A stretch of 30,508 nt of DNA. Source: a virus. Its lineage: Duplodnaviria > Caudoviricetes. The stretch spans positions 1 through 30,508 of the IMG/VR virus record IMGVR_UViG_3300031689_000037. One strand, 5' to 3'. This document shows positions 7,081-30,340 of the stretch, piece by piece. Positions within the stretch are counted from its first letter, which is position 1, and the number at the start of each line of letters is the position of its first letter. Both the position numbers and the translations under genes were made by a program. The notes below the pieces were generated by a model. The model was not told the origin of the DNA, ran no database searches, and saw only the letters and a program-made list of their open reading frames with translations.

Positions 7081-7112
7081 ATAGAATTTTTTAATTTATA
7101 TTATATTATATT

Positions 7113-8309
7113 ATGTCAGAAGAAGTAAAACAAGAAGGAGACTTTAAAATAAAAAGTAAACCTAAAATGAAAAAGTTTAATAAGGAAACCGAAACTATTA
7201 AAGTGGATTTATCCGATAATAAAAAAGTTGAGGAAGAAGTTATTAAAGTTAACTTAAAAGAAGAAGATGCCAATAAAAAGCAAGAAGCAACAAACGTGGC
7301 TACAGATAAACCAGCCGAAATTGTACCAGAAGTGGAAGCAGAAGTATCATCAGGGGAAAGCCCCGTTCAAAATGAGGGGTTTGCTGGCATCCAAGAAATA
7401 ACTGGAGAAGAAGTAAAAGAAGAAGTAATAGAAGTTACTAAAGAAATAAAGGAAGCAATTAGAGATGAACGTGTTTCAGGAAAGCCACTTCCTGAAAATA
7501 TTGAAAAACTTGTTTTATTTATGGAAGAAACAGGTGGCAATGTTGAAGACTATGTTAGATTAAATGCTGACTACAGTAATGCAAATAAAGATACATTATT
7601 AAAAGAGTACTATAAAAAAAGTAAACCGCATCTTGATGATGACGAGATTAATTTCCTTTTAGAAGATAAATTTTCGTATGACGAAGACTTAGATGAAGAA
7701 AGAGATATACGCAAGAAAAAGCTTGCGTTCAAAGAAGAGGTTCAAGAAGCCAAAAACTTTTTAGAAGACTTGAAGGGTAAATATTACGATGAGATTAAGT
7801 TAAGACCAGGCGTAACCCAAGAGCAACAAAAAGCAACGGAGTTCTTTAACCGATACAACGAAGAGAAAAGCTTAAAGAGCCAAAAGCACGACAGGTTTAA
7901 AAAGGCTACATCTGAAATGTTCAACAACGACTTCAAAGGTTTTGATTTCGAGGTTGGAGAAAAAAAATTCAGGTATGGTGTTAATAATCCAACAAGTCTT
8001 GCTGACAAACAATCTGAACTTTCTAACATAATCGGGAAGTTCCTGAATAACAAGGGAGAAATTTCAGACCACAAAGGTTACCACAAAGCTATGTATGCTG
8101 CGTCTAACGTAGACAAGATTGCAGGTCACTTTTATGAGCAAGGTAAAGCCGATGCTGTTAAGGAGGTTGTGAATGGTTCAAAGAATCTATCAGACCAACC
8201 GAGGCAGACTTCTGGTGATAGCGTGTTTATAAATGGGATTAGAGTTAAGTCTGTAAGCGGAGCGGACTCTTCAAAATTAAAAATTAAAAAAACAAACTTT
8301 AAAAATTAA
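7113..8309 (+). CDS. Capsid scaffolding/assembly protein
   Basis: Highly acidic, disordered N-half and helical C-half with a basic tail. Lies between portal and major capsid genes. Confidence 0.7.
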   Translation: MSEEVKQEGDFKIKSKPKMKKFNKETETIKVDLSDNKKVEEEVIKVNLKEEDANKKQEATNVATDKPAEIVPEVEAEVSSGESPVQNEGFAGIQEITGEEVKEEVIEVTKEIKEAIRDERVSGKPLPENIEKLVLFMEETGGNVEDYVRLNADYSNANKDTLLKEYYKKSKPHLDDDEINFLLEDKFSYDEDLDEERDIRKKKLAFKEEVQEAKNFLEDLKGKYYDEIKLRPGVTQEQQKATEFFNRYNEEKSLKSQKHDRFKKATSEMFNNDFKGFDFEVGEKKFRYGVNNPTSLADKQSELSNIIGKFLNNKGEISDHKGYHKAMYAASNVDKIAGHFYEQGKADAVKEVVNGSKNLSDQPRQTSGDSVFINGIRVKSVSGADSSKLKIKKTNFKN

Positions 8310-9803: not shown

Positions 9804-9848
9804 ACTTGGGGTCGCAAATTGCGGCTCCAAGTTTTATTTATTTTTTTT
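9804..9848 (+). terminator. Intrinsic terminator after the major capsid gene
   Basis: ACTTGGGGTCGCA-AAT-TGCGGCTCCAAGT forms a 13-bp stem with 2 G-U pairs, followed by TTTATTTATTTTTTTT. Confidence 0.85.
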
Positions 9849-9866
9849 ATTAAATTTTATTATATT

Positions 9867-10634
9867 ATGGCTACAAAAGCAAAAGAAAAGACTACCGAAA
9901 ATTGGGAGTCTAAAGACAGGTTGTACTACCTTAAAAATGGGGTATCACCATTGACATTTACATTATCAAGCAAGCATTCACAAAGACATCCATTGATGTA
10001 TTTTGATGAGGAATTAGGTTATGAAAGAGAGCTTAGGTATGCAACAAACCAAGTATCTCCATTTGTTGATAAGCAAACAGGGCCAGCAACATTAGCGCAC
10101 ATTGTTTTTCACAACGGGGTGTTGATGGTTCCTAAACAAAAACAAAATTTACAAAAACTTTTATCATTATATCACCCTCTAAGAAAAAATTTATATGCAG
10201 AGCAAGACGAAGTTGCTGAAGCAGTAAACCAGTTAGAAGATATTGAACTGGAAATTGAAGCATTAAATTTAGCTTTACAATTAGATGTTGACCACGCTGA
10301 GGCAATATTAAGAACTGAATTAGGTAGTGCTGTATCTAAAATGAACAGTAAAGAACTTAAACGAGATTTAATGCTACTTGCTAAAAGCAATCCAGCGTTG
10401 TTTATAAGTCTTGCACACGATGAAAACGTGGAGCTTAGAAGCTTTGGTATTAGAGCAGCGGAATCAGGGATTATTATATTGTCTTCTGACCAAAAAACAT
10501 TCAAGTGGGCCACTAACGGCAAAAAGTTAATGGAAGTTCCATTTGACGAACATCCATACTCAGCATTAGCTAGTTGGTTTAAAACTGACGAGGGGATGTT
10601 AGTATACAAAAGTATAGAGAAAAAATTCTCTTAA
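9867..10634 (+). CDS. Protein downstream of the capsid gene (probable virion/assembly protein), function unknown
   Basis: Start is most likely ATG 9867 (MATKAK, 255 aa). The track's 9819 start lies inside the terminator hairpin. Confidence 0.75.
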   Translation: MATKAKEKTTENWESKDRLYYLKNGVSPLTFTLSSKHSQRHPLMYFDEELGYERELRYATNQVSPFVDKQTGPATLAHIVFHNGVLMVPKQKQNLQKLLSLYHPLRKNLYAEQDEVAEAVNQLEDIELEIEALNLALQLDVDHAEAILRTELGSAVSKMNSKELKRDLMLLAKSNPALFISLAHDENVELRSFGIRAAESGIIILSSDQKTFKWATNGKKLMEVPFDEHPYSALASWFKTDEGMLVYKSIEKKFS

Positions 10635-19177: not shown

Positions 19178-21508
19178 ATGAGCTATAGAAATCCAAGTTT
19201 AAAAGTAGATACAAGTTTAGGAGATGCTTTTATTAAACAGATAAAAGGTGTAAGTTCAGGCATAAATACAACTATGTCTAAATATGCCAAAATGGCATCA
19301 GAGAATAAACAAAGAAACTTTGAATTAACAAAAAAGATAAATCAATACGAATCAGAAGTTTCCTCAAATGTATCAAAAATTGCTACAGAGAATAAAGTGG
19401 ATGTTGAAAGTTTACTTAGTGGACTTGAGCCAAGAACGAAGGAGTTCAAACAGGCGGCAGCTAGATACAATATGGCAAAAGAATCATACGAAGGTATGGA
19501 GGAAGATGCAATTATAATGAGAGAGTTTGAAAATTTTACAAACTACGGATTAGGTCAGCAACTTGCTGCAAAAGAATTTATTTTCTCAACTTTTAACGAT
19601 GCAATGTTAAAAGGTGGTATGGATGGAAAAGGTGGCTCTATAAGTTCATCTGTTGACCCACAGTTGTTAGCTATGGTTAATGTAGAAAAACCAGGGAGCA
19701 ATATTAAAGCAAGAAATAGTTATGAGGTTGTTGGTAATGATGTGTTTTATGTTACATCTGGTCCAGAAATAGCACGACTAAATAAAGAGATGGGTATAGA
19801 AGGTGACTCCTATAGAGTATCTGCAAAAGAATTACAAGAGCAAACAACAGCTAAAGGAGCAAGTCCTACCAACTTTCATATTTTTAATACAATAGTAGAC
19901 TTAGCAGGTGATGGTAGTGAAAATGGAGTTGGAATTAGTTATCAACTACAACAAGATGAGGTTATAAATAAAGGTGAGTTTACCAAAGAGTACAGTAGAA
20001 ATTACGGAAAACAATTAAGAAGTGAAAAAGTAGAGGGAGGTCAAGATATTTCAATATTGGTTGATAGAACAGCGGTAGATATAGATAATGCAACAGCAGC
20101 GATAACTCCATCCGTAAACGCAACTATGAATACTTGGTTTGGATTTAAAGGACCAGAGCTTTTTGACTACATTAGAACTAATGTAAAAGAAACAAGAGAG
20201 ATTGATGGTAAAAAATACTATGTTCACAAGCCAGTAAAAGGCAGAAATGAAAAAGGAGAAGTAGAGTATGGGGAAGAGATTTTAATGTCTGAAGATGAGC
20301 TTGTTAGGGATTTTGTAAATAATCCAGATGATGGGTATAGCGAAGAGATGAAGGATAAAATAAAGAAAGTAGGAGTCGATGATGCTTTAAAAATTTATGG
20401 AGCTTTAAACAAACCCAAAGAAACAAAGAGTAATGCTCCTGAATATGTGAGAGGAAAGGCAAGAAGCCAAACAGCTAAATCTATATCTGCTGAAGTTCAA
20501 AAAAATAGCGAACTTGCAACTCAAGGAAGGTATAATGAGATGGATTTTTCTATGTTAGAAGGAATAAAAAATGGAAGTGCATTTAGAGTAAGAGATGATA
20601 ATTCTGGAATCGTTGATGTTTATGATAAAAGCGGAAATCAAATAGCACAACTTGATTTAAATGACAAAGCAGAGGTAACAGAAAGGAATTTGCTTAATAT
20701 ATTTGACGAAGGAGCTGCAGGTGTTCTTGATTCAGGAGAAGAAATACCTAAATCTGCTATTATAAAGGACCTTATAAATCCAATAAAAAATGTAGACTCT
20801 GATATATCAGAAGAAGATTTTATGGATAACTTATCAGGTGGTTACTTAAAAAGATTATCTAAGTTAGGTATAGGGTTAGAAGAAACTAATGTTGGAAATG
20901 ATGCTTTACTTTTAACGAAACCAAATGGTGATGAAGTTGAGATTGATTTAGAGAAAGGTGGATGGCAAAATGTGTACGCAAGAGAAATGGAAAGTGCCAT
21001 AAAGATGAGTCCAGAGTATAAAAAGTCTGTTAATGAAGAAAAAAACCCACCTAAAACAGAAGGTGAAAAGCCTAAAACAGAAGGTGAAAAGCCTAAATTG
21101 GGTTTGCTATCATTTTACAATAAACTAAAACAAAGTGAATCATCTAACGACACAACAGCTTCAAGAGTAAATAAAACTGGAGATAGATATGTTGGCGAAT
21201 TGCAGTTTGGCGAGGCGAGATTAAGTGACTACAAAAAAGCTACTGGAAGTTCATTTGATTTAGATGAGTTTCAAGGAAATCCAAGTCTACAAACAAAGGT
21301 TGGACTTTGGCATATTGGGGATATTGATAGATACATAGACCAATTAGGTGACTTAGCAAAGGGGTATGACAAAGATGGATTGAGAGCTATAGCTCACTTA
21401 GGCGGTAAAGGAGGAATGAAGAAGTGGTTGGAATCAAAAGGAAAAGCAAACCCATCAGACGAACTAGGAACATCTTTAACTAAATATTACAAAAAGTTCT
21501 CGAAATAA
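19178..21508 (+). CDS. Internal virion/ejection protein with C-terminal lysozyme-like (lytic transglycosylase-type) domain
   Basis: The last ~130 aa contain catalytic-type SES, YVGELQFG and AIAHLGGKGG...NPSDELGTS, preceded by a Pro/Lys/Glu repeat linker. Confidence 0.7.
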   Translation: MSYRNPSLKVDTSLGDAFIKQIKGVSSGINTTMSKYAKMASENKQRNFELTKKINQYESEVSSNVSKIATENKVDVESLLSGLEPRTKEFKQAAARYNMAKESYEGMEEDAIIMREFENFTNYGLGQQLAAKEFIFSTFNDAMLKGGMDGKGGSISSSVDPQLLAMVNVEKPGSNIKARNSYEVVGNDVFYVTSGPEIARLNKEMGIEGDSYRVSAKELQEQTTAKGASPTNFHIFNTIVDLAGDGSENGVGISYQLQQDEVINKGEFTKEYSRNYGKQLRSEKVEGGQDISILVDRTAVDIDNATAAITPSVNATMNTWFGFKGPELFDYIRTNVKETREIDGKKYYVHKPVKGRNEKGEVEYGEEILMSEDELVRDFVNNPDDGYSEEMKDKIKKVGVDDALKIYGALNKPKETKSNAPEYVRGKARSQTAKSISAEVQKNSELATQGRYNEMDFSMLEGIKNGSAFRVRDDNSGIVDVYDKSGNQIAQLDLNDKAEVTERNLLNIFDEGAAGVLDSGEEIPKSAIIKDLINPIKNVDSDISEEDFMDNLSGGYLKRLSKLGIGLEETNVGNDALLLTKPNGDEVEIDLEKGGWQNVYAREMESAIKMSPEYKKSVNEEKNPPKTEGEKPKTEGEKPKLGLLSFYNKLKQSESSNDTTASRVNKTGDRYVGELQFGEARLSDYKKATGSSFDLDEFQGNPSLQTKVGLWHIGDIDRYIDQLGDLAKGYDKDGLRAIAHLGGKGGMKKWLESKGKANPSDELGTSLTKYYKKFSK
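21050..21097 (+). repeat. 21-bp tandem repeat, 2.3 copies (PKTEGEK linker)
   Basis: CCTAAAACAGAAGGTGAAAAG at 21050-21070 and 21071-21091, plus CCTAAA. Confidence 0.95.
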
Positions 21509-21514
21509 AATATT

Positions 21515-24500
21515 ATGGAAGAAGAAAATTTATTTGAATACGAAGGAGTATCTTACTCAGAAGCTGCTCTTAGGGAGGCGTATCCTGAAACCTTTGATGA
21601 GTACGTCAATCAAGGGGTATTGACAAAAGTAGGAGGTGAAGAGCCTGTTGAAGTTGAAGATGTTAAAGAAGAGTCTTTTTATGAGTATGATGGAGAGTCT
21701 TATCCAGAGTCTTCACTTAGAGACTTATATACAGACTCTTTTGATGACTATGTAGAGCAAGGCGTACTTACAAAAGTAGACGGCCTGGGAAAGCCAATAG
21801 CTGTCGAGGATTCTGCGACAGCAAGAGATATGGATTTAGAATCGGAAGATGGTTTATCGGGGTCACAAGAAGAAGACACTCTTCTTGAAAGAACATTTGG
21901 AAAGAATGAGCTTACTGATAGTCTAGGAGATGTATGGAGGGCAGCGGTGCAAGGTATTTCACAATCAAAAGTCGTAGACCCATCAATGGATTTAATGACT
22001 TCTGGAGCGGATGCTTCGCTTGGCGAAATATATAAATACATAAGAGTAAATGAGGAGTTAAGTAAAAACCAAAAGATTCAAGATGAAATGGCATCATGGG
22101 ATAAAGATGTTGACAAGAATGGTGGAGGAGCTTATGGTATTCTGATGGCAACAATAAATAACCCTGGAATTGCAATACCAGTAATGGTAAGCTCGATGGC
22201 TACAATGGTCGGCTCTCTTCAATCAGAGCAAGCAGTCGCTTCTACTGCCGTAGGTGTAGGGCTTGGTGGTGCTGCTGGGCTTTCTGGTGCAATACTTGCC
22301 CCTGCAACGGTTCCTATAGGAATGGCTGTTGGAGGATTTGCTGCATTATCTGGTACTATGGAGGCGGCATTAACATTCAATGAACTCCTTCAAGAAGAAA
22401 TAGGTGGAGTACTTACTCCTGAAAAAGTTAAGATGGTTTTAAGCGACCCAGAAAAACTTTCTACTTTAAGACAAAAAGCAATTGCGAGAGGTGCTGTAAT
22501 TACTGCTGTAGATTTTATAACAGCAGGGGTCGCAGGTAAACTTACAGGTACTGTTCTTAAAAAGGCAGTACCATTAGGAACAAGCATTGCGTCTAGGGCA
22601 GCTATAAAAACTGCGGGTGTTGCTGGTGGTGTACTAGTAGAGGGTGCTGGTGGAGGCATTGGTGAAGCTAGTGCTAGGGCTGTAATAGGCCAAGAAATGG
22701 ACGCTAAAGATATAGCTCTTGAAGTAATTGGGGAATTTGGTGGAGCAGGAATTAGTGTAGTTCCTGCCGCTTATAATAACTTAAAGATTGTAAGTGGAAG
22801 AGTTGAAGCAAACAAAACCGCTACGGAAGGGGGATATAAAAACGCATCATCCGTATTCGACCCTAACACAGACATTGACGAAACAACTATAACACTTGCG
22901 GCTAACAAAAACACATCAAACCTTGTTGACGAACAAGTAGAAATAGAGGTCGCTAACGGTAGGATGACTCAAGAGGAGTCTAATGCTATAAAAGAGAACT
23001 TTAGAAGCACTCAAGGTGCTGTAAATACAGCCAATAAAATAGATAGACTAACCTCGGAAAATAAGCCAGAGGTGGTAAATCTTTTAATTGAAGAGGCGAA
23101 GTTAAAGAATAAAATAAAAGACGTTGATAACGTTTCGTTAACTAAAACAGAGGCGGTAAGACTTAAAGAAGTACAAGTTAGATTAGAAGAAATTAGCAAC
23201 CCTAAAGAAGAGGCAGTATCAGAGATAGAGACAGAGGAGGAGACTGGTGTTCCACCAACCCCAGAAGAGCCAGCGAGTGTAGAAACTGCACCTGCGGAAG
23301 AAGCAATACCCCAGGAAGAGTTAGAGGAAGTAAGGGGGTCACAAAAAGAAAGAAGAGGTCAAGGTAGTCTCTTAGATAATGTAAACAAAGAAGAAAAAGT
23401 TTATCTAAATGGTAAAGAGGGTAATATAAAGATTGACCCAACAAACGAAAACACCATTATATTTGAATCGAGTGATGAAATAATTGAACTTGGAAATAAA
23501 GACGAGGTAGGTTCTGAGTCTCTTGCTGGATTTGGATTAACTACAATGCCACCTGAAGGTTTGGATGTTCAAACTAAAACTGCGGATTCAGATGTTGTGT
23601 TTATAGATGGTAAAGAGTATAATGTAATAGGTAGAAGTAGAGATAAAAAAGGAAAGGCTGTAATAAAAGTAAAGGAAGTAGTTAGAACTACAGATAAAAA
23701 AACAGGAGAACCTGTAATTAAATCTGGATTACAAAGGAGAATCGTAGGAGCTAAAGCGGAAAGAGTTTTAAAAGATGTTCAACGCAGAAAAGAAAAAAAA
23801 GAAACTCCATTACCTTTAAAAACAGAAGGAAAAGAAGTTACTACTCCTACTAAAAAAGAAAGAAGAGCCGAAAGAGTTGCAGAAAAGAAAAAAGCTAGAG
23901 AGGAGCATGACAAAAAATCATTAGAGGAGTTATCTCAAATTGATGAAGAGTCTCAGAAAAGCATTCAGGAGTTTGAAGAGATGGCTCTCGAAGATGCTGC
24001 TCAAGAATCTAAAAACAAAGACTTAGTTCAAGTTGGAGAAGATATATTTCAAGTAACTAAGAATGACGATGGTTCTTTTGCTGTATCTCAAATGAACGAA
24101 AGTGGCAAACTGATTGGCACTAGAGAAGAAGGAAAGAGAAGTAAGGCTATAGGTGTATTTAAATCTAAGAAGTCAAACCAAGAAAGAAGGGCTTTAGCTA
24201 AAGCAGAAAAGCTTGTAGATGAATTTAAAAAAGAAGAAGCACAAAAAATAGACGATGCTATTAACGAAAGTCTATCTGCAAGACAACAAAAATCAGATGG
24301 GTCGAAACCTGCATTTAACGAAAGAATATCCGCACCTGAGTCAATTGTAACAAAATCATTGCAAGTTTTAAGAAACTCTTACGCTGCTGGAAACTCATTG
24401 GTTCAATCAATAGAAGACGCATTGTCATTTATAGAGGAGCAAGGGTTTTCTGCAAACGAGTTTTATTTCAAAGACTTTGTTGTTGATGTATTGAGTAGTT

Positions 24501-27500
24501 CTAAATCAAAAGAAACTACAAAGGCTACACCAAAGACTAAGGCTGCTCCAACGGAAACTACAAAAGCCACTGGGAAAGAAAGTTTAATTGGTAAGTATGG
24601 TAAGGTTAGAATTAGAAGGCAAGTAGCAAAAGCTAAAAAGGCTTTATCAAAGATTGCTAAGGGTGTCACTATTGAGGTATACGAAACTCAAGATGAGTTT
24701 GAAGCTGCTACCAATGGAGACTCTGTTTCAGGAGGTATTTATGAACCACTAACAAAAACTATAAAGATAAATCTTGAAAAAGCAAACCCAAGAACGGTTG
24801 CACACGAAGTATTCCACGCATTACTACTTAAGGATGGAATAACAAACGCTAGAGCGCAGAAAGTTACATCGGATATGATGGCTGCTGTTCGTAAGGTTGC
24901 GTCTCCAAAGTTACTTAAACAGCTTGATGCATTTGCTGACGAATACAAAAATGAAGGACTTAAATCTGAAGAGAGTATTGCTGAACTTTTTGGCATACTA
25001 GCAGAGAACTACGATTCGTCTCCGCAGTCTGTAAAGGACTTAATAAACGATTGGATAAGAAAGCTTGCTAAGGCTCTTAATGTGCCAGTAGAGGGCATCC
25101 TAGACAGCGACAAGCAGGTACTAGAGTTCTTAGGTGTTGTGTCTGGCAAGGTTGCAAGGGGAGAAGTTATTGAGGAGTCTGATATAGAATTATTAAAGTC
25201 AGTTGAAGGAGAAAGTGGAAGCGAGATAACCGTAAGCACCCGCCAGCAGATTGTAGGAGAGAACGCAGAACTATCTCAAAACGTAAGAGGTAACCTTAGT
25301 GTTGCAAGACAAATGGAAACCGACAATAAAGACGCTAAAACTATTCGTATTGCAACAGGATGGGAACGTGGTGCTGATGGGAAGTGGAGGTATGAGATAG
25401 ATGATATAGCCATCACTGGGGATGTCACGCCTTGGACTGACGAATGGAAAGGTGAGGGGTATATAACTAAATTAAATGATTTAGTAAGTGGAGGGTTGAT
25501 TGAAGCTTACCCACAATTAGAAAAGGTTACTGTTGTTAAGGGACTATCAGGGGCTAACTTTGGAACATTTGGTCAAATGTCTAAAACAAGGGAAGGTTGG
25601 GATATAAATCTTTCAGATAGAATTTTTAATGAGGATGTTGAGTTTGGAAAATCTGTATTAATACACGAAATACAACACATAATACAAGACATTGAGGGTT
25701 TTGCACAAGGTGGTAGTCTGAAATCTGCTAAAGCATTAAAACAGTTTGCCGCAATGCCCCTTGGAATGAAAGCTGTGAGTTTAATGAATAGGATTAAATC
25801 TATTCAGAAAGAGTATGGCGATAATGTTACATTATCATTTGGCTCTCACCCAGAATACAAAGAGTATAAAGGAAAGTTAGATAAATTAAACCAAGAAATA
25901 GACAAAACAGCAGATAAAATAAGAAAGGTAGATGAAAAATTTGACGGGTTATCAAATTTTGAAATATACAAAGCTCTTACAGGAGAAGTAGAAGCAAGGA
26001 ATGTCCAAACAAGAATGAATATGACTCCTGAACAAAGGAGAGAAACAACACTACAAGAAACAGAAGATGTAGCAAGAGAAGACCAGATATTTTTTGAACA
26101 AGAAACCACAACCCCCCAAACCCGTCAGCAGAAAGTTTTTAGAGCTGGAGATTTGGTTGATAAAGCTGAAACAATATATAAGTTTGATGGACCAAGAAGT
26201 ACAGGTCATTTTGGAACAGGGTTTTATTTTTTCGGTAAAAAAGAAGATGCTCAAAAGTACGCTAAAAGAACAGGTACAGATACAACATCACGAATTGTTT
26301 CTGAAGTTGATTTAGATGATTACAATTTAGCTCCTGCCTCTATAGCTCTTCATAAAGCTTTAAAAAATATAAATGACGAATACTCGTCCTTTGAATTTTT
26401 AAAACGTAATTTAAATAGCGAGGTTAGGTCTTATGAAATAGAAAAAGTAGCAAGAACTTTAGGTATTGATTTACCAAGCGATTTGTCTTCTAAGTATGCA
26501 GAGGATATAACTAAAAAACTAAGGAGTAGTAACAATAAAGAGTCTGCATCCACTATTGTGATGAAAGAATTAGGTTTTGATGGAGTAGATGCTACAGGAA
26601 CTGAATTAGATAACTCTACTTACGGAACTGTAGTTTATGATATAAAACCACAAACCCGTCAGCAGAAAGCACAAGATGACTTTACAATACAAGACGTAAT
26701 AGAAGACGCTGAACAAGAAGGTCTTACAAGAAAAGAAACCATAGAGGTCTTACAAGAACTTGGGTTTACTAAGGATGAGATAAGAGGTGCGGTGAAGCCT
26801 GTTAAGGAAAAGGCTAGGTCTGTAGCGTCTGAAACAACAGGCCTATCTACAAGAGAAGCTTTCAAGCAAGGGTTTACAGAGTTCTTTGATGCAATTCAAA
26901 GAGGTAAGAAAATAGCAAGAGTAAAAGCTGCGGAAAACTTAAAAGAAAAGGTAAACAAAGTAAGAGAATCTTTCAAGAAAAGATTACAGAAAGAGAAGGA
27001 TAACAAGGATGCAAGAGCCGCTGTTGTTAAGGATATTCGAGCCATAATAAAAGACTCAGGAATTAGTCAGTTCTCTAAAAGGACTATAAACAAGATAATG
27101 ACAAACGTCAAGAACGCCAATGTGAATAATATGCAGAGGATGGTTGACGAGGTTATGGATGTTGTTAATAGAGACATTGACAGAGAAGTTAAAGATGCAA
27201 GGTATGAGACACTTAAAGCTGCCAGAAAAAAGTTATCAAGACTTGGTGCTTTAAAGGAACTTCAAAAGCCTCTTATGGAGATGTTAAGTATAAACCCTGA
27301 CTATTTATCTAAAGCTGCTTTAAACTTTTACGATAAAGTGGTTGTAAACTTAGCAAACGTAGAGAAGAAGTTTGACAATAGAGCCTCTAGAGAAGACCTT
27401 AAAAAAGCCGCAGATGAGGTTATAAAAGCATTTACAGCTGATAGTATTGCGGCTGAAGAGTTAGCTGGAAAAACAATAAATCCAAACCTTGACTTAACAA

Positions 27501-30340
27501 AAACAAAGGGTGAGAACCTGAAGCAAATGCTAAAGGATAGGCTAATATCTGACTCTGACTTTGAACTTATGACAAGGTTTGAGGACCTTATTGGTAATAC
27601 TGAGGAAGAACTTACATTAGAGGGGTTAGAGCAGAAAGCAAAAGAAAGGAGGGACGCTGCAATAGAAGACTTTGAAGCAGCTATGGATGAAATACCTGCG
27701 TCATTGCCAAACCTTTCAAGAGATGATAAGGAAGCGGTTAGGTTTGCAAATGGTCTAAAAATGAAAGACCTTGAAAGTTTAAGTACTGCACAAATAAAGA
27801 AGCTTACAAGAGGAGTTGAAATGCTTCAGGCAGGATATGTTACCACAGAATTAGTTCAATCAAAAGTACGGGTGGAGGCTAATAGGGATACAACAGAGAC
27901 CCTTATAAGCGAAACAGAGGAAAGAGGAAAACTTGACAAAGCTATATCTAAAGCTAAAGTCTTTGTAACCAATCTTTTTAGAAAGAGAAATAAGAAGATT
28001 ACCTCTATAGAGAATAGAATTAAATCAACTCCACTTACAAATATAGACCAAATACTTAACGCAGGAGCTAAAAAGTTTAAATCGACAAGAATTTATGAAT
28101 CTATATTTAGACCTGTTGGAGCCGCATTCTCAAAAACAGAAGATTTCTTAAAACAAGTAAAGAAAAAACTACAAGTAGCTGAAACCTATTTAGATTTAAA
28201 CGGCAATAAGAGGTATGTTCAAAAAGCTAAGGTAATGATTTACCAAATTCAAAGAGAGTATGAAAGCAACCCAGATAACAATGAGGTAAGTAAAGCTATA
28301 GAGTGGATTAAAGCTACACTTGATGACCCTGAATCAAATATTTCAGATGTAGAGAGAGAAGCGATAGAGAAGATTAGAGACGAGTTTACTGTAAACGGAC
28401 AGATAGATTCTAAAAAGATTTTAGATAGCCTTACGAGTAAGGAGAAGAAGTATATGGCGATTATAGACGAGGGGTATAAGAGCGTAGAGTTTATGGTTGC
28501 TGCTGACGCAAAGATGCAAGGTAAGCTATTTGTTCTTAGAGAGAACTATGTTCACCTACCAAGAGTTACTAAAAGTAAAAATTCAATGAGTGATGATTTG
28601 AAAGAAATATCAAGTAGCTTTACAAATCCAGCACTAAAAAACAAAGCTTTGACACAAAGAGATGGTACAGCACACGCAATATCATTTGACCCTACATTTA
28701 ATGTAAATGCAATAACAAAAAAAGCTGCAATTAGTTACTATATGTACCCAGCAGTCAAAAAAGCTAAAATTACATTAGGAGGCGTCAAGAAGAATGCGCA
28801 AACTGACTTTCAGAAAGAAACGGCAGACGCATTGGAGAGTGTTTTTGATGGAATAGTTAAAAGCCAATATGCTCATTTATCTGCCGATAAAGCTTTTATA
28901 GAGAAAGCTTTAGCGTTTTTAGGTAGAGCAGGTTACCTAGCACAGCTTGCAGGTCCTATTAAGGCGGTAGTTGAATTAGCAACCAACTTAACTCACGCAT
29001 TATTTGTAAATCCAACAGGTTTGATTTCTGGGTTTGACACTTTAAAGATTAACTCTAGGGAGATTATGAATAAAGCTATTGACTATTTGCCAACAACCCA
29101 AAACAATAGGTTGAGTGGAAAGGGAGTTAAAGACAGTAAGGAGGTAGATAGTAGATTAATAAACGACTCCTTAAACATACTTGAACAAGAGGAGATGACT
29201 TCTGAATTTAGAGCTAAAGTAAACACTATATTTAAGTTTGCTAAGAAACCAGCAAGTGCAATAATAAAGTTTAACGAAAACTTGATTTCAAGACCAGACA
29301 CAATTGTAGCCAGGCCTTTGTTTGTTGGTGTTTTTAATAAGTCTTTTGAGAATATAGCACAAGAAAAACCCAACTGGGAGAAGATTGCAAGTGATGAATC
29401 ATACAGAGATAAGTTTAGAGATGCTATTAAGCAAGCTACTGAGGATGGGGATACTGCTGTTGTAGATAACGCTGCTTCTAACAACCCGTTTGATGGTATT
29501 CCTAAAAACGTACTTGATAAAGATGCTACTCCCGTAAAACAAGCACTACAGATGGTGGATAGGTATATGACAAGGTTTAGAACCTTTGAATACTACTCGG
29601 CATTGAAAGGAATACAAGGATTAATGGGTAAAGGTAAACTAACGCCAACTCAAGGGGCAATGCTTTTAGCAGGAACTGTAGCTCGTTTATCTCTGTATAA
29701 GATGGGTATTGATATGGTTTTTACTTTGATATTCTCAATGTTAGGTATAGACAAAGAGGAAGATGAGATAGATTTAGAAAAAGATTTAACCAAAGGAGTG
29801 TTAGGTGCAGTTGCTACACTTGCACTTGGAAGAAGCTTTGGTAATATTGCTCAGATGCCAATAAACTATGGGACTGAGTGGTTAAATAAGGAGTACGGAG
29901 AAGGCATAACAAGGTCAGGAGAGTATAACCAGTATAAGGATGGTCTGGTTTTTTCCAAGATTCCTATGGAGGTTAAACCTCAAGATAATATGGTTGAAAA
30001 AATTGTAACCTCATCACTTGGTTCTTACAGTCCAATGGTTAAAACTTTAACAAGAGGTGGGAAAGTAGCAACAAAAGCTGCAACACTGAAGACCGAAGAA
30101 TCTAGAGATAGAAACTTTGGAGAACTTACAACAAGAATACCTTTTGAGATAGCAGGGAACTTAGGGGTAATTCCAGGGTACAAGAGCCTTAGAAAGATAT
30201 ATTTAAAATATCTTTATGGAGGGATTAAAAATTCAGCAACCTCAAAACAAAATAAAATAAGCAGATTTACAGGTCCAAAAATAAATAATTCTAAAGACAA
30301 AGTAAAATCAAGATTTACAGGTCCAAAAATAAATAAATAA
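21515..30340 (+). CDS. Giant polyvalent virion/ejection protein (2941 aa): N-terminal repeats, hydrophobic helices, zincin, LPD23+zincin, ART-like domain, helical C-terminus
   Basis: HEVFH at 24803 with EESIAE. LPD23-like ARQME...IRIATGWERGADGKWRYEI, then HEIQH at 25664 and GEVEARNVQ. ART-like VFRAG...GTGFYF...AQKYA...GFDGV...VVYD at 26136-26650. Confidence 0.8.
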   Translation: MEEENLFEYEGVSYSEAALREAYPETFDEYVNQGVLTKVGGEEPVEVEDVKEESFYEYDGESYPESSLRDLYTDSFDDYVEQGVLTKVDGLGKPIAVEDSATARDMDLESEDGLSGSQEEDTLLERTFGKNELTDSLGDVWRAAVQGISQSKVVDPSMDLMTSGADASLGEIYKYIRVNEELSKNQKIQDEMASWDKDVDKNGGGAYGILMATINNPGIAIPVMVSSMATMVGSLQSEQAVASTAVGVGLGGAAGLSGAILAPATVPIGMAVGGFAALSGTMEAALTFNELLQEEIGGVLTPEKVKMVLSDPEKLSTLRQKAIARGAVITAVDFITAGVAGKLTGTVLKKAVPLGTSIASRAAIKTAGVAGGVLVEGAGGGIGEASARAVIGQEMDAKDIALEVIGEFGGAGISVVPAAYNNLKIVSGRVEANKTATEGGYKNASSVFDPNTDIDETTITLAANKNTSNLVDEQVEIEVANGRMTQEESNAIKENFRSTQGAVNTANKIDRLTSENKPEVVNLLIEEAKLKNKIKDVDNVSLTKTEAVRLKEVQVRLEEISNPKEEAVSEIETEEETGVPPTPEEPASVETAPAEEAIPQEELEEVRGSQKERRGQGSLLDNVNKEEKVYLNGKEGNIKIDPTNENTIIFESSDEIIELGNKDEVGSESLAGFGLTTMPPEGLDVQTKTADSDVVFIDGKEYNVIGRSRDKKGKAVIKVKEVVRTTDKKTGEPVIKSGLQRRIVGAKAERVLKDVQRRKEKKETPLPLKTEGKEVTTPTKKERRAERVAEKKKAREEHDKKSLEELSQIDEESQKSIQEFEEMALEDAAQESKNKDLVQVGEDIFQVTKNDDGSFAVSQMNESGKLIGTREEGKRSKAIGVFKSKKSNQERRALAKAEKLVDEFKKEEAQKIDDAINESLSARQQKSDGSKPAFNERISAPESIVTKSLQVLRNSYAAGNSLVQSIEDALSFIEEQGFSANEFYFKDFVVDVLSSSKSKETTKATPKTKAAPTETTKATGKESLIGKYGKVRIRRQVAKAKKALSKIAKGVTIEVYETQDEFEAATNGDSVSGGIYEPLTKTIKINLEKANPRTVAHEVFHALLLKDGITNARAQKVTSDMMAAVRKVASPKLLKQLDAFADEYKNEGLKSEESIAELFGILAENYDSSPQSVKDLINDWIRKLAKALNVPVEGILDSDKQVLEFLGVVSGKVARGEVIEESDIELLKSVEGESGSEITVSTRQQIVGENAELSQNVRGNLSVARQMETDNKDAKTIRIATGWERGADGKWRYEIDDIAITGDVTPWTDEWKGEGYITKLNDLVSGGLIEAYPQLEKVTVVKGLSGANFGTFGQMSKTREGWDINLSDRIFNEDVEFGKSVLIHEIQHIIQDIEGFAQGGSLKSAKALKQFAAMPLGMKAVSLMNRIKSIQKEYGDNVTLSFGSHPEYKEYKGKLDKLNQEIDKTADKIRKVDEKFDGLSNFEIYKALTGEVEARNVQTRMNMTPEQRRETTLQETEDVAREDQIFFEQETTTPQTRQQKVFRAGDLVDKAETIYKFDGPRSTGHFGTGFYFFGKKEDAQKYAKRTGTDTTSRIVSEVDLDDYNLAPASIALHKALKNINDEYSSFEFLKRNLNSEVRSYEIEKVARTLGIDLPSDLSSKYAEDITKKLRSSNNKESASTIVMKELGFDGVDATGTELDNSTYGTVVYDIKPQTRQQKAQDDFTIQDVIEDAEQEGLTRKETIEVLQELGFTKDEIRGAVKPVKEKARSVASETTGLSTREAFKQGFTEFFDAIQRGKKIARVKAAENLKEKVNKVRESFKKRLQKEKDNKDARAAVVKDIRAIIKDSGISQFSKRTINKIMTNVKNANVNNMQRMVDEVMDVVNRDIDREVKDARYETLKAARKKLSRLGALKELQKPLMEMLSINPDYLSKAALNFYDKVVVNLANVEKKFDNRASREDLKKAADEVIKAFTADSIAAEELAGKTINPNLDLTKTKGENLKQMLKDRLISDSDFELMTRFEDLIGNTEEELTLEGLEQKAKERRDAAIEDFEAAMDEIPASLPNLSRDDKEAVRFANGLKMKDLESLSTAQIKKLTRGVEMLQAGYVTTELVQSKVRVEANRDTTETLISETEERGKLDKAISKAKVFVTNLFRKRNKKITSIENRIKSTPLTNIDQILNAGAKKFKSTRIYESIFRPVGAAFSKTEDFLKQVKKKLQVAETYLDLNGNKRYVQKAKVMIYQIQREYESNPDNNEVSKAIEWIKATLDDPESNISDVEREAIEKIRDEFTVNGQIDSKKILDSLTSKEKKYMAIIDEGYKSVEFMVAADAKMQGKLFVLRENYVHLPRVTKSKNSMSDDLKEISSSFTNPALKNKALTQRDGTAHAISFDPTFNVNAITKKAAISYYMYPAVKKAKITLGGVKKNAQTDFQKETADALESVFDGIVKSQYAHLSADKAFIEKALAFLGRAGYLAQLAGPIKAVVELATNLTHALFVNPTGLISGFDTLKINSREIMNKAIDYLPTTQNNRLSGKGVKDSKEVDSRLINDSLNILEQEEMTSEFRAKVNTIFKFAKKPASAIIKFNENLISRPDTIVARPLFVGVFNKSFENIAQEKPNWEKIASDESYRDKFRDAIKQATEDGDTAVVDNAASNNPFDGIPKNVLDKDATPVKQALQMVDRYMTRFRTFEYYSALKGIQGLMGKGKLTPTQGAMLLAGTVARLSLYKMGIDMVFTLIFSMLGIDKEEDEIDLEKDLTKGVLGAVATLALGRSFGNIAQMPINYGTEWLNKEYGEGITRSGEYNQYKDGLVFSKIPMEVKPQDNMVEKIVTSSLGSYSPMVKTLTRGGKVATKAATLKTEESRDRNFGELTTRIPFEIAGNLGVIPGYKSLRKIYLKYLYGGIKNSATSKQNKISRFTGPKINNSKDKVKSRFTGPKINK
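26117..26669 (+). repeat. 19-bp perfect in-frame direct repeat flanking the ART-like domain
   Basis: CAAACCCGTCAGCAGAAAG at 26117-26135 and 26651-26669 (534 bp = 178 codons apart). A degenerate third copy, ACCCGCCAGCAGA, is at 25238-25250. Confidence 0.95.
30263..30336 (+). repeat. 26-bp direct repeat at the 3' end of the giant gene
   Basis: AGATTTACAGGTCCAAAAATAAATAA at 30263-30288 and 30311-30336, encoding SRFTGPKIN twice. Confidence 0.95.

Follow-up and report, generated by a model that had tools for sequence, protein, structure and literature searches.

A short in-frame repeat encoding R-x-Q bounds exchangeable domain cassettes within one giant phage gene

Among relatives of a 2941-aa phage protein, domain cassettes move as in-frame units that are bounded by a repeated junction encoding the peptide R-x-Q or, for the first slot, by the end of a zincin-like domain. 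The protein is encoded in the window, by which we mean the whole 30,508-nt stretch of viral DNA analysed here (IMG/VR record IMGVR_UViG_3300031689_000037). From sequence comparison we favor a joint explanation, to which we assign a probability of roughly 0.62: cassettes would be exchanged at the R-x-Q repeat by a phage annealase, and the peptide would be kept as a predicted cut site of the zincin. The features of the gene are as follows.

21515..30340, +, 2941-aa protein fitting the phage polyvalent class, last gene of the head/tail module; the Elemovirus homologue is labelled 'structural protein'
24281..24289, +, upstream R-Q-Q in ordinary codons; kept in close relatives, with no swap point in the data seen
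24575..25195, +, zincin-like MPTase; HEVFH at aa 1097 and a downstream EE; fold matches weak
25170..25200, +, zincin C-terminal end (GEVIEESDI); 5' breakpoint for first-slot replacement, where L002/L006 identity ends at 25187
25238..25250, +, repeat copy 1 (T-R-Q-Q); 99% identity to L109 begins exactly here; linker predicted disordered
25241..26122, +, 882-bp cassette with LPD23 and a second HExxH (HEIQH) domain; in slot 1, 2 or 3 in relatives, or absent
26117..26135, +, repeat copy 2; 19-mer in common with copy 3
26123..26656, +, 534-bp cassette with an ART-PolyVal-like domain; weak Pfam match, no obvious catalytic Glu
26651..26669, +, repeat copy 3; L002 identity restarts at 26649 (99.56%)
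26670..30337, +, conserved C-terminal body; phrog_32588 at aa 2146-2906; also present on proteins with another zincin or none

The first-pass annotation had described three direct repeats, in frame and written in codons that this genome seldom uses, and a motif search together with codon counts bore the description out. The sequence ACCCGYCAGCAGA begins at 25238, 26120 and 26654, with spacings of 882 and 534 bp that both preserve the frame. All three copies lie in frame within the open reading frame at 21515-30340, and each encodes T-R-Q-Q, at aa 1242, 1536 and 1714. A perfect 19-mer is common to copy 2 (26117-26135) and copy 3 (26651-26669), and copy 1 deviates at the Y position. Elsewhere in the window, a search allowing as many as 2 mismatches revealed no further copy of ACCCGYCAGCAGA (mean of 0.33 in shuffled sequence). 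Across the 16 open reading frames of the window, arginine is spelled AGA 275 times, CGT 16 times and CGC 4 times, and glutamine is spelled CAA 284 times and CAG 79 times; in the capsid gene, CAG makes up 1 of 17 Gln codons and ACC 0 of 39 Thr codons. Given how the gene itself uses codons, the ACC-CGY-CAG-CAG spelling would arise by chance with a probability of 6e-4 for each copy, the copies not being independent. The fourth RQQ, at 24281, is spelled AGA CAA CAA, as had been claimed. GC content per cassette (37% and 33%, compared with 35-42% for the backbone) was uninformative. Codons that are rare in the genome and placed at domain borders might act as translational pause sites aiding co-translational folding. 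However, common codons occupy the same borders in 36 of 87 loci, usually including the first border, and pausing would leave the breakpoints at the motif unexplained, so that we consider this explanation highly improbable.

Since several conflict-type domains, including a member of the LPD families, are joined in one polypeptide, the protein, with its HExxH zincin, LPD23, weakly ART-like domain and conserved body, fits the phage polyvalent proteins. Of the domain labels given in the first-pass annotation, LPD23 (aa 1248-1299) passes the Pfam cut-off with an E of 9e-14, and the ART-like label is weakly matched, the 178-aa cassette scoring below the ART-PolyVal cut-off (Pfam E 0.021). The same cassette was ART-PolyVal-like by atlas features (0.93), with the family carried by 22-35% of cluster members. 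Its family terminates in YG[ST]V[IV]Y and has no obvious catalytic Glu in the last strand; the family of the 534-bp domain spans 415 clusters at E<=0.001 and often lies within other long proteins bearing other junction peptides. In the zincin, 111 of 111 aligned rows retain the H, E and H residues and both downstream Glu, and the predicted model places three strands before the HExxH helix. A Foldseek search with the zincin returned no match at E<=0.001, the best zincin row of a fold search was PPEP-2 (a weak match, with Z 5.7, rmsd 3.8 and 80 aligned), and the best sequence match, IrrE, was not significant (E 0.016).

The window also carries terminase, portal and virion genes and GroES, its terminase is 44% identical to that of Flavobacterium elemo phages, and the stretch occurs in marine metagenomes; its source is an Elemovirus-related flavobacterial phage. 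By analogy with phi24B, whose polyvalent gp47 was found in virions according to the available part of that report (10.64898/2026.04.10.717836), and from the gene context and the Elemovirus label, the 2941-aa protein is likely packaged and ejected. The 'effector' and 'virion' labels of the first-pass annotation are best read as putative. Two duplications were observed in the protein: a 49-aa tandem duplication at the N-terminus (21519-21632 and 21666-21779, 70% nucleotide identity), also present in close relatives, and one at the C-terminus (30242-30336) in which SRFTGPKIN occurs twice, 16 aa apart, possibly a packaging or processing tag.

Comparison with relatives revealed that domain content changes exactly at the repeat, as the first-pass annotation had proposed, and the invariant domain order that it had named as the opposing outcome is contradicted by the 13 classes of cassette that 27 rows with at least 60% zincin identity, some of them duplicates, arrange in about 14 layouts. 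Across the 894 nt that run from the first repeat to the second, the window and L109 are 99.2% identical, while their zincins are just 63% identical. The flanks of L105 match L109, and L105 has a single repeat copy where L109 has two copies 882 bp apart, which constitutes an exact 882-bp presence/absence. L002 is 94.7% identical to the window up to 25187, carries another cassette in between, and is 99.56% identical from 26649 onward. The 534-bp cassette is present without the 882-bp one in P0003, P0007, P0009 and L025. The expectation that breakpoints would coincide with the repeat thus held for the internal slots but not for the first slot, where the break falls about 50 nt before repeat 1 (~25187). 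The LPD23 cassette in slot 1 joined directly to the body was found in no database relative; L109 does have an LPD23 cassette-to-body junction, but in slot 2. Among 28 scanned cassettes, 3 passed the LPD23 cut-off, 4 passed the ART-PolyVal cut-off and 1 contained NlpC/P60; methyltransferase-like and LRR-like content was also seen, and about half gave no informative match. An 18-mer in L019 and L021 was rejected as a chance occurrence, there being no long open reading frame in that frame. Tandem R-x-Q motifs 9-33 aa apart in L184 (+360/+378), L222, L208, L209, L228, P0046 and P0051 resemble scars of cassette loss.

The same positions emerged as branch points in metagenome contigs. In runs X15 and X18, contigs branched at 25187, 25238, 26123/26131 and 26649; X4 and X10 held the window's form only, and the RNA run X19 was left out as too fragmentary. 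In X15 and X16, two runs of one study, a contig of high abundance passes directly from 24574 to 26123, an allele that lacks this zincin and the LPD23 cassette and retains the ART-like cassette (its upstream part is unseen, and its left anchor is 25 nt long). This allele was absent from viral_contigs, where 2 loci matched, both of them already known. Excised circles and exact 534-bp deletion joints, which the first-pass annotation had suggested looking for, did not appear among the contigs of 8 runs, a form of data that drops rare variants.

To place the breakpoints statistically, we used 134 non-redundant loci out of 254 zincin-bearing open reading frames. Comparing these loci in pairs placed 98 distinct breakpoints in the variable region, 67 at the end of the zincin and 28 upstream, 193 in all; they are pseudo-replicated, the pairs not being independent. 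Both sequences lay within 20 nt of an R-x-Q at 69 of the 98 variable-region breakpoints, compared with 3.9% expected for one side, where x had been widened after the breakpoints were seen; under the prior definition, R[QKF]Q, the figure was 47 out of 165, with 62 of the 165 located at the zincin end. Left ends scatter from -16 to +6 relative to the motif and right ends concentrate at a single position, 14 out of 31 falling just after the Gln codon. In a cluster count over 245 junctions, at least 2 partners were found at 20 upstream ends and at 30 downstream starts, as against 3-10 upstream ends and 1-6 downstream starts in four shifted controls; by our own reading of the counts, about 8 of the 20 multi-partner upstream ends resemble drift of homologous partners. 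A profile of the body start drifted and was dropped.

The first-pass annotation had placed the identity of the repeats at the DNA level, a view that stands within genomes and gives way across the family. Among internal copies within a genome, the codon was shared at 218 of 299 identical core residues (165 expected), while pairs of a first and an internal copy shared it at 99 of 225 (123 expected), with no excess. The dominant spelling per locus was CG-type in 47, AG-type in 36 and mixed in 4 of 87 loci, and at 70 breakpoint sites x was K, Q, E, S, M, L, F or T, with 25 different 9-mers represented. Since synonymous sites vary (36 of 87 loci are mainly AGA-type) and x varies as well, the unit conserved across the family is, as these spellings read, the peptide R-x-Q; judged from both sets of counts, the junction is conserved as DNA and as peptide. 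Internal motifs used CGN in 82 of 155 cases compared with a background of 14%, and the wobble positions of 89 CG-type junctions were T in 90%, G in 92% and G in 81%. The first motif after the zincin was instead spelled AGR in 36 of 41 cases. Because that motif is written in ordinary codons and first-slot swaps break upstream of it, it appears to be kept as peptide, not as DNA.

A possible though tentative extension is that a single 9-bp unit serves a dual code, as protease site freeing the injected domains and as DNA compatibility key, such that phages sharing CGTMAGCAG would trade effector cassettes across deep lineages and the gene would amount to an integrase-free, integron-like array. The spelling label changes 8 times on a quick zincin tree, 5 of these changes being forced by well-supported branches. 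Of 73 pairs with cassette identity of at least 88%, 53 were CG-CG, 7 AG-AG, 12 involved a mixed locus and 1 was AG-CG. The deepest cassette-sharing pairs reduce to about two CG-CG groups versus one AG-CG pair, a comparison confounded by relatedness that hints only weakly at a compatibility key. As to more general roles of the motif, R-x-Q was not enriched in other window proteins, which leaves a general prohead-protease site unsupported. The 9-mer occurs 3-7 times per record, and in G001 solely as the 3 junction copies; a Chi-like hotspot was rejected, as the motif is not scattered genome-wide.

We then considered which machinery might carry out the exchange. An annealase (Erf, Sak or Rad52) adjoins a gene for a RecE-like (exonuclease VIII-like) exonuclease in 4 of 4 scanned records (99 open reading frames of at least 90 aa). 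The window ends short of that region, and a record 99.99% identical to it over the compared stretch encodes Erf. The annealase beside the exonuclease varies between Erf, Sak and Rad52-like (L260:9325-9873; L258:19634-L259:323; L261:3075-3764; L263:8975-9646), which suggests that the annealase is itself swapped. In the available part of PMC3945230, Erf/Exo pairs are described as recombining diverged DNA, and 23-27 bp is given as the minimum for efficient pairing by Red-beta. Within-genome junction pairs had a median perfect run of 8 nt, and 1 of 106 reached at least 23 nt. We propose that related phages gain, lose and reorder domains by rare short-homology recombination at the R-x-Q repeat. The crossovers would take place during co-infection and would be carried out by the phage's own single-strand annealing protein, a dependence suggested by gene content. 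Each crossover would copy the junction DNA, which may be why the rare codons are shared, and only in-frame, motif-flanked products would survive.

The pile-up of right ends at one position and the fixation of the core in rare codons across lineages could point to CGTMAGCAG as the site of a host-encoded or unrecognised site-specific recombinase acting on an integron-like array. However, neither PF00589 nor PF00239 (Tyr/Ser recombinase) was matched in 5 of 5 related records, 1 of them complete, a result that leaves room for a host enzyme. AGA-type junctions are swapped too (for example in L079, L129 and L246), the breakpoint sites comprise at least those 25 different 9-mers and their left ends scatter, and the logo shows no evident inverted arms. 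We regard such a recombinase as improbable.

The second half of the joint explanation concerns the peptide. The 128 proteins that carry a zincin of this clade contain R[KQ]Q 352 times where 88 were expected, a four-fold excess among proteins that are not independent. By comparison, 14 proteins with another zincin clade on a related body had 9 occurrences (8.9 expected), 13 of the 14 having x-x-S-K after the zincin, and 37 proteins without a classified zincin had 31 (24 expected). Neither the zincin nor any cassette remains in P0122, and P0123 carries the other zincin and lacks R-x-Q altogether. Both belong to the close relatives, with bodies 81-86% identical, and the other-clade zincin of P0123 sits after its cassette. 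The first junction is predicted to be disordered (pLDDT <50); an RRQ at aa 1034, directly ahead of the zincin, falls in a predicted helix and was left out of the set of junctions. The covariation of motif and zincin clade, although confounded by linkage and shared ancestry, together with the disordered first junction fits a cut site after Gln. The repeat would thus be retained because R-x-Q is the predicted site at which the zincin cuts after Gln, freeing each domain; cleavage, packaging, ejection and anti-host activity are all predicted. Autoproteolysis by the zincin has been proposed for polyvalent proteins in section 8 of PMC5512222.

Several observations count against the joint explanation. 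The zincin-less allele in X15/X16 keeps its ART-like cassette, the junction homologies are below 23-27 bp, and the fold matches of the zincin are weak. If the exchange is real, the peptide might instead be a linker tag with a role in packaging, unfolding or ejection, or the protein shadow of copied microhomology. The zincin-less allele, in which a motif-flanked cassette persists at high depth, agrees with that possibility, as does the helical R-x-Q before the zincin, and section 8 of PMC5512222 describes N4 vRNAP, ArdC and TraC1 as delivered uncut despite their MPTases. Yet the first motif after the zincin holds to AGR although swaps break upstream of it, which argues that it is selected as a peptide, and the motif differs with the zincin clade on a shared body. 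We therefore judge a mere linker tag or shadow rather unlikely, and retain the predicted cut site as the preferred role.

The protein class and the recombination route are already known; to these the present case contributes base-precise DNA exchange at the junction, branching at the population level and a cultured relative whose protein is laid out alike. The polyvalent proteins of Iyer et al. 2017 (PMC5512222) resemble the one in the window in being giant HExxH MPTase proteins with LPD23 and a mosaic architecture; their ART-PolyVal-type domains are weakly matched by the 534-bp cassette. They differ in that the available part of that account gives no junction motif or mechanism of within-gene exchange, whereas here the junction is defined and exchange is base-precise; cassette recombination is raised there for separate open reading frames in Verrucomicrobium alone. 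Polymorphic toxin systems, as treated in the same part of PMC5512222, likewise replace effector domains at a conserved border of a conserved backbone, but at one C-terminal tip, while here several internal slots are used at once and the window shows neither a silent cassette reservoir nor immunity genes. Relaxed Rad52-like recombination, as described in the accessible text of De Paepe et al. 2014 (PMC3945230), shares with the window's relatives an Erf/Sak/Rad52 protein, an exonuclease and short homologies; here the homologies are mostly 8-22 nt, below 23-27 bp, and are repeated in frame within one gene.

Integron arrays and the R64 shufflon likewise consist of exchangeable modules, varying in number and order, with short repeats as their borders. 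In contrast, no tyrosine recombinase was found in the 5 related records, no attC-like arms are apparent, the repeats are direct and degenerate, the cassettes are in-frame domains of one protein, and there is no fixed crossover, given the 25 9-mers. A cultured parallel is the 3694-aa structural protein of Elemovirus (MT497066.1, QMP84800.1), whose zincin belongs to the same clade at 38% identity. There the zincin lies at 1543 and R-x-Q at 1683, 2079 and 2302, following the zincin, separating two cassettes and preceding the body; it differs in having AGA-type codons, no long DNA repeat and other cassettes. In the literature, taken without supplements and with few subscription journals, we found no account of motif-bounded cassette exchange within polyvalent genes, although the motif may be touched on in the supplements of PMC5512222; the elemo phages go unmentioned in PMC7077304.

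Polyvalent proteins are widespread, and both how their domains are acquired and reordered and whether the zincin cuts have been at issue since 2017. The present case supplies base-precise natural exchange events together with exact candidate cut sites, and since the cultured Elemovirus (Flavobacterium sp. BAL314) has the same layout, both exchange and cleavage are accessible to experiment. Many cassette domains without annotation are marked off by the motif as well, and these are candidate phage counter-defence or takeover proteins.

Three further observations concern the surroundings of the gene. Just upstream, a 776-aa gene (19178-21508) encodes a C-terminal endolysin-like domain (phrog_26675) and is likely an ejected wall hydrolase. 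GroES is encoded in the window at 1637-2236, and GroEL was found in two relatives (L258:8803-10422; L262:12438-13973). Finally, an AT-rich element common to 7086-7133 and 9840-9887 ends at a start codon and may be a late promoter or translation signal; its copy at 9840-9887 places the start of the 9819 open reading frame further downstream than listed.
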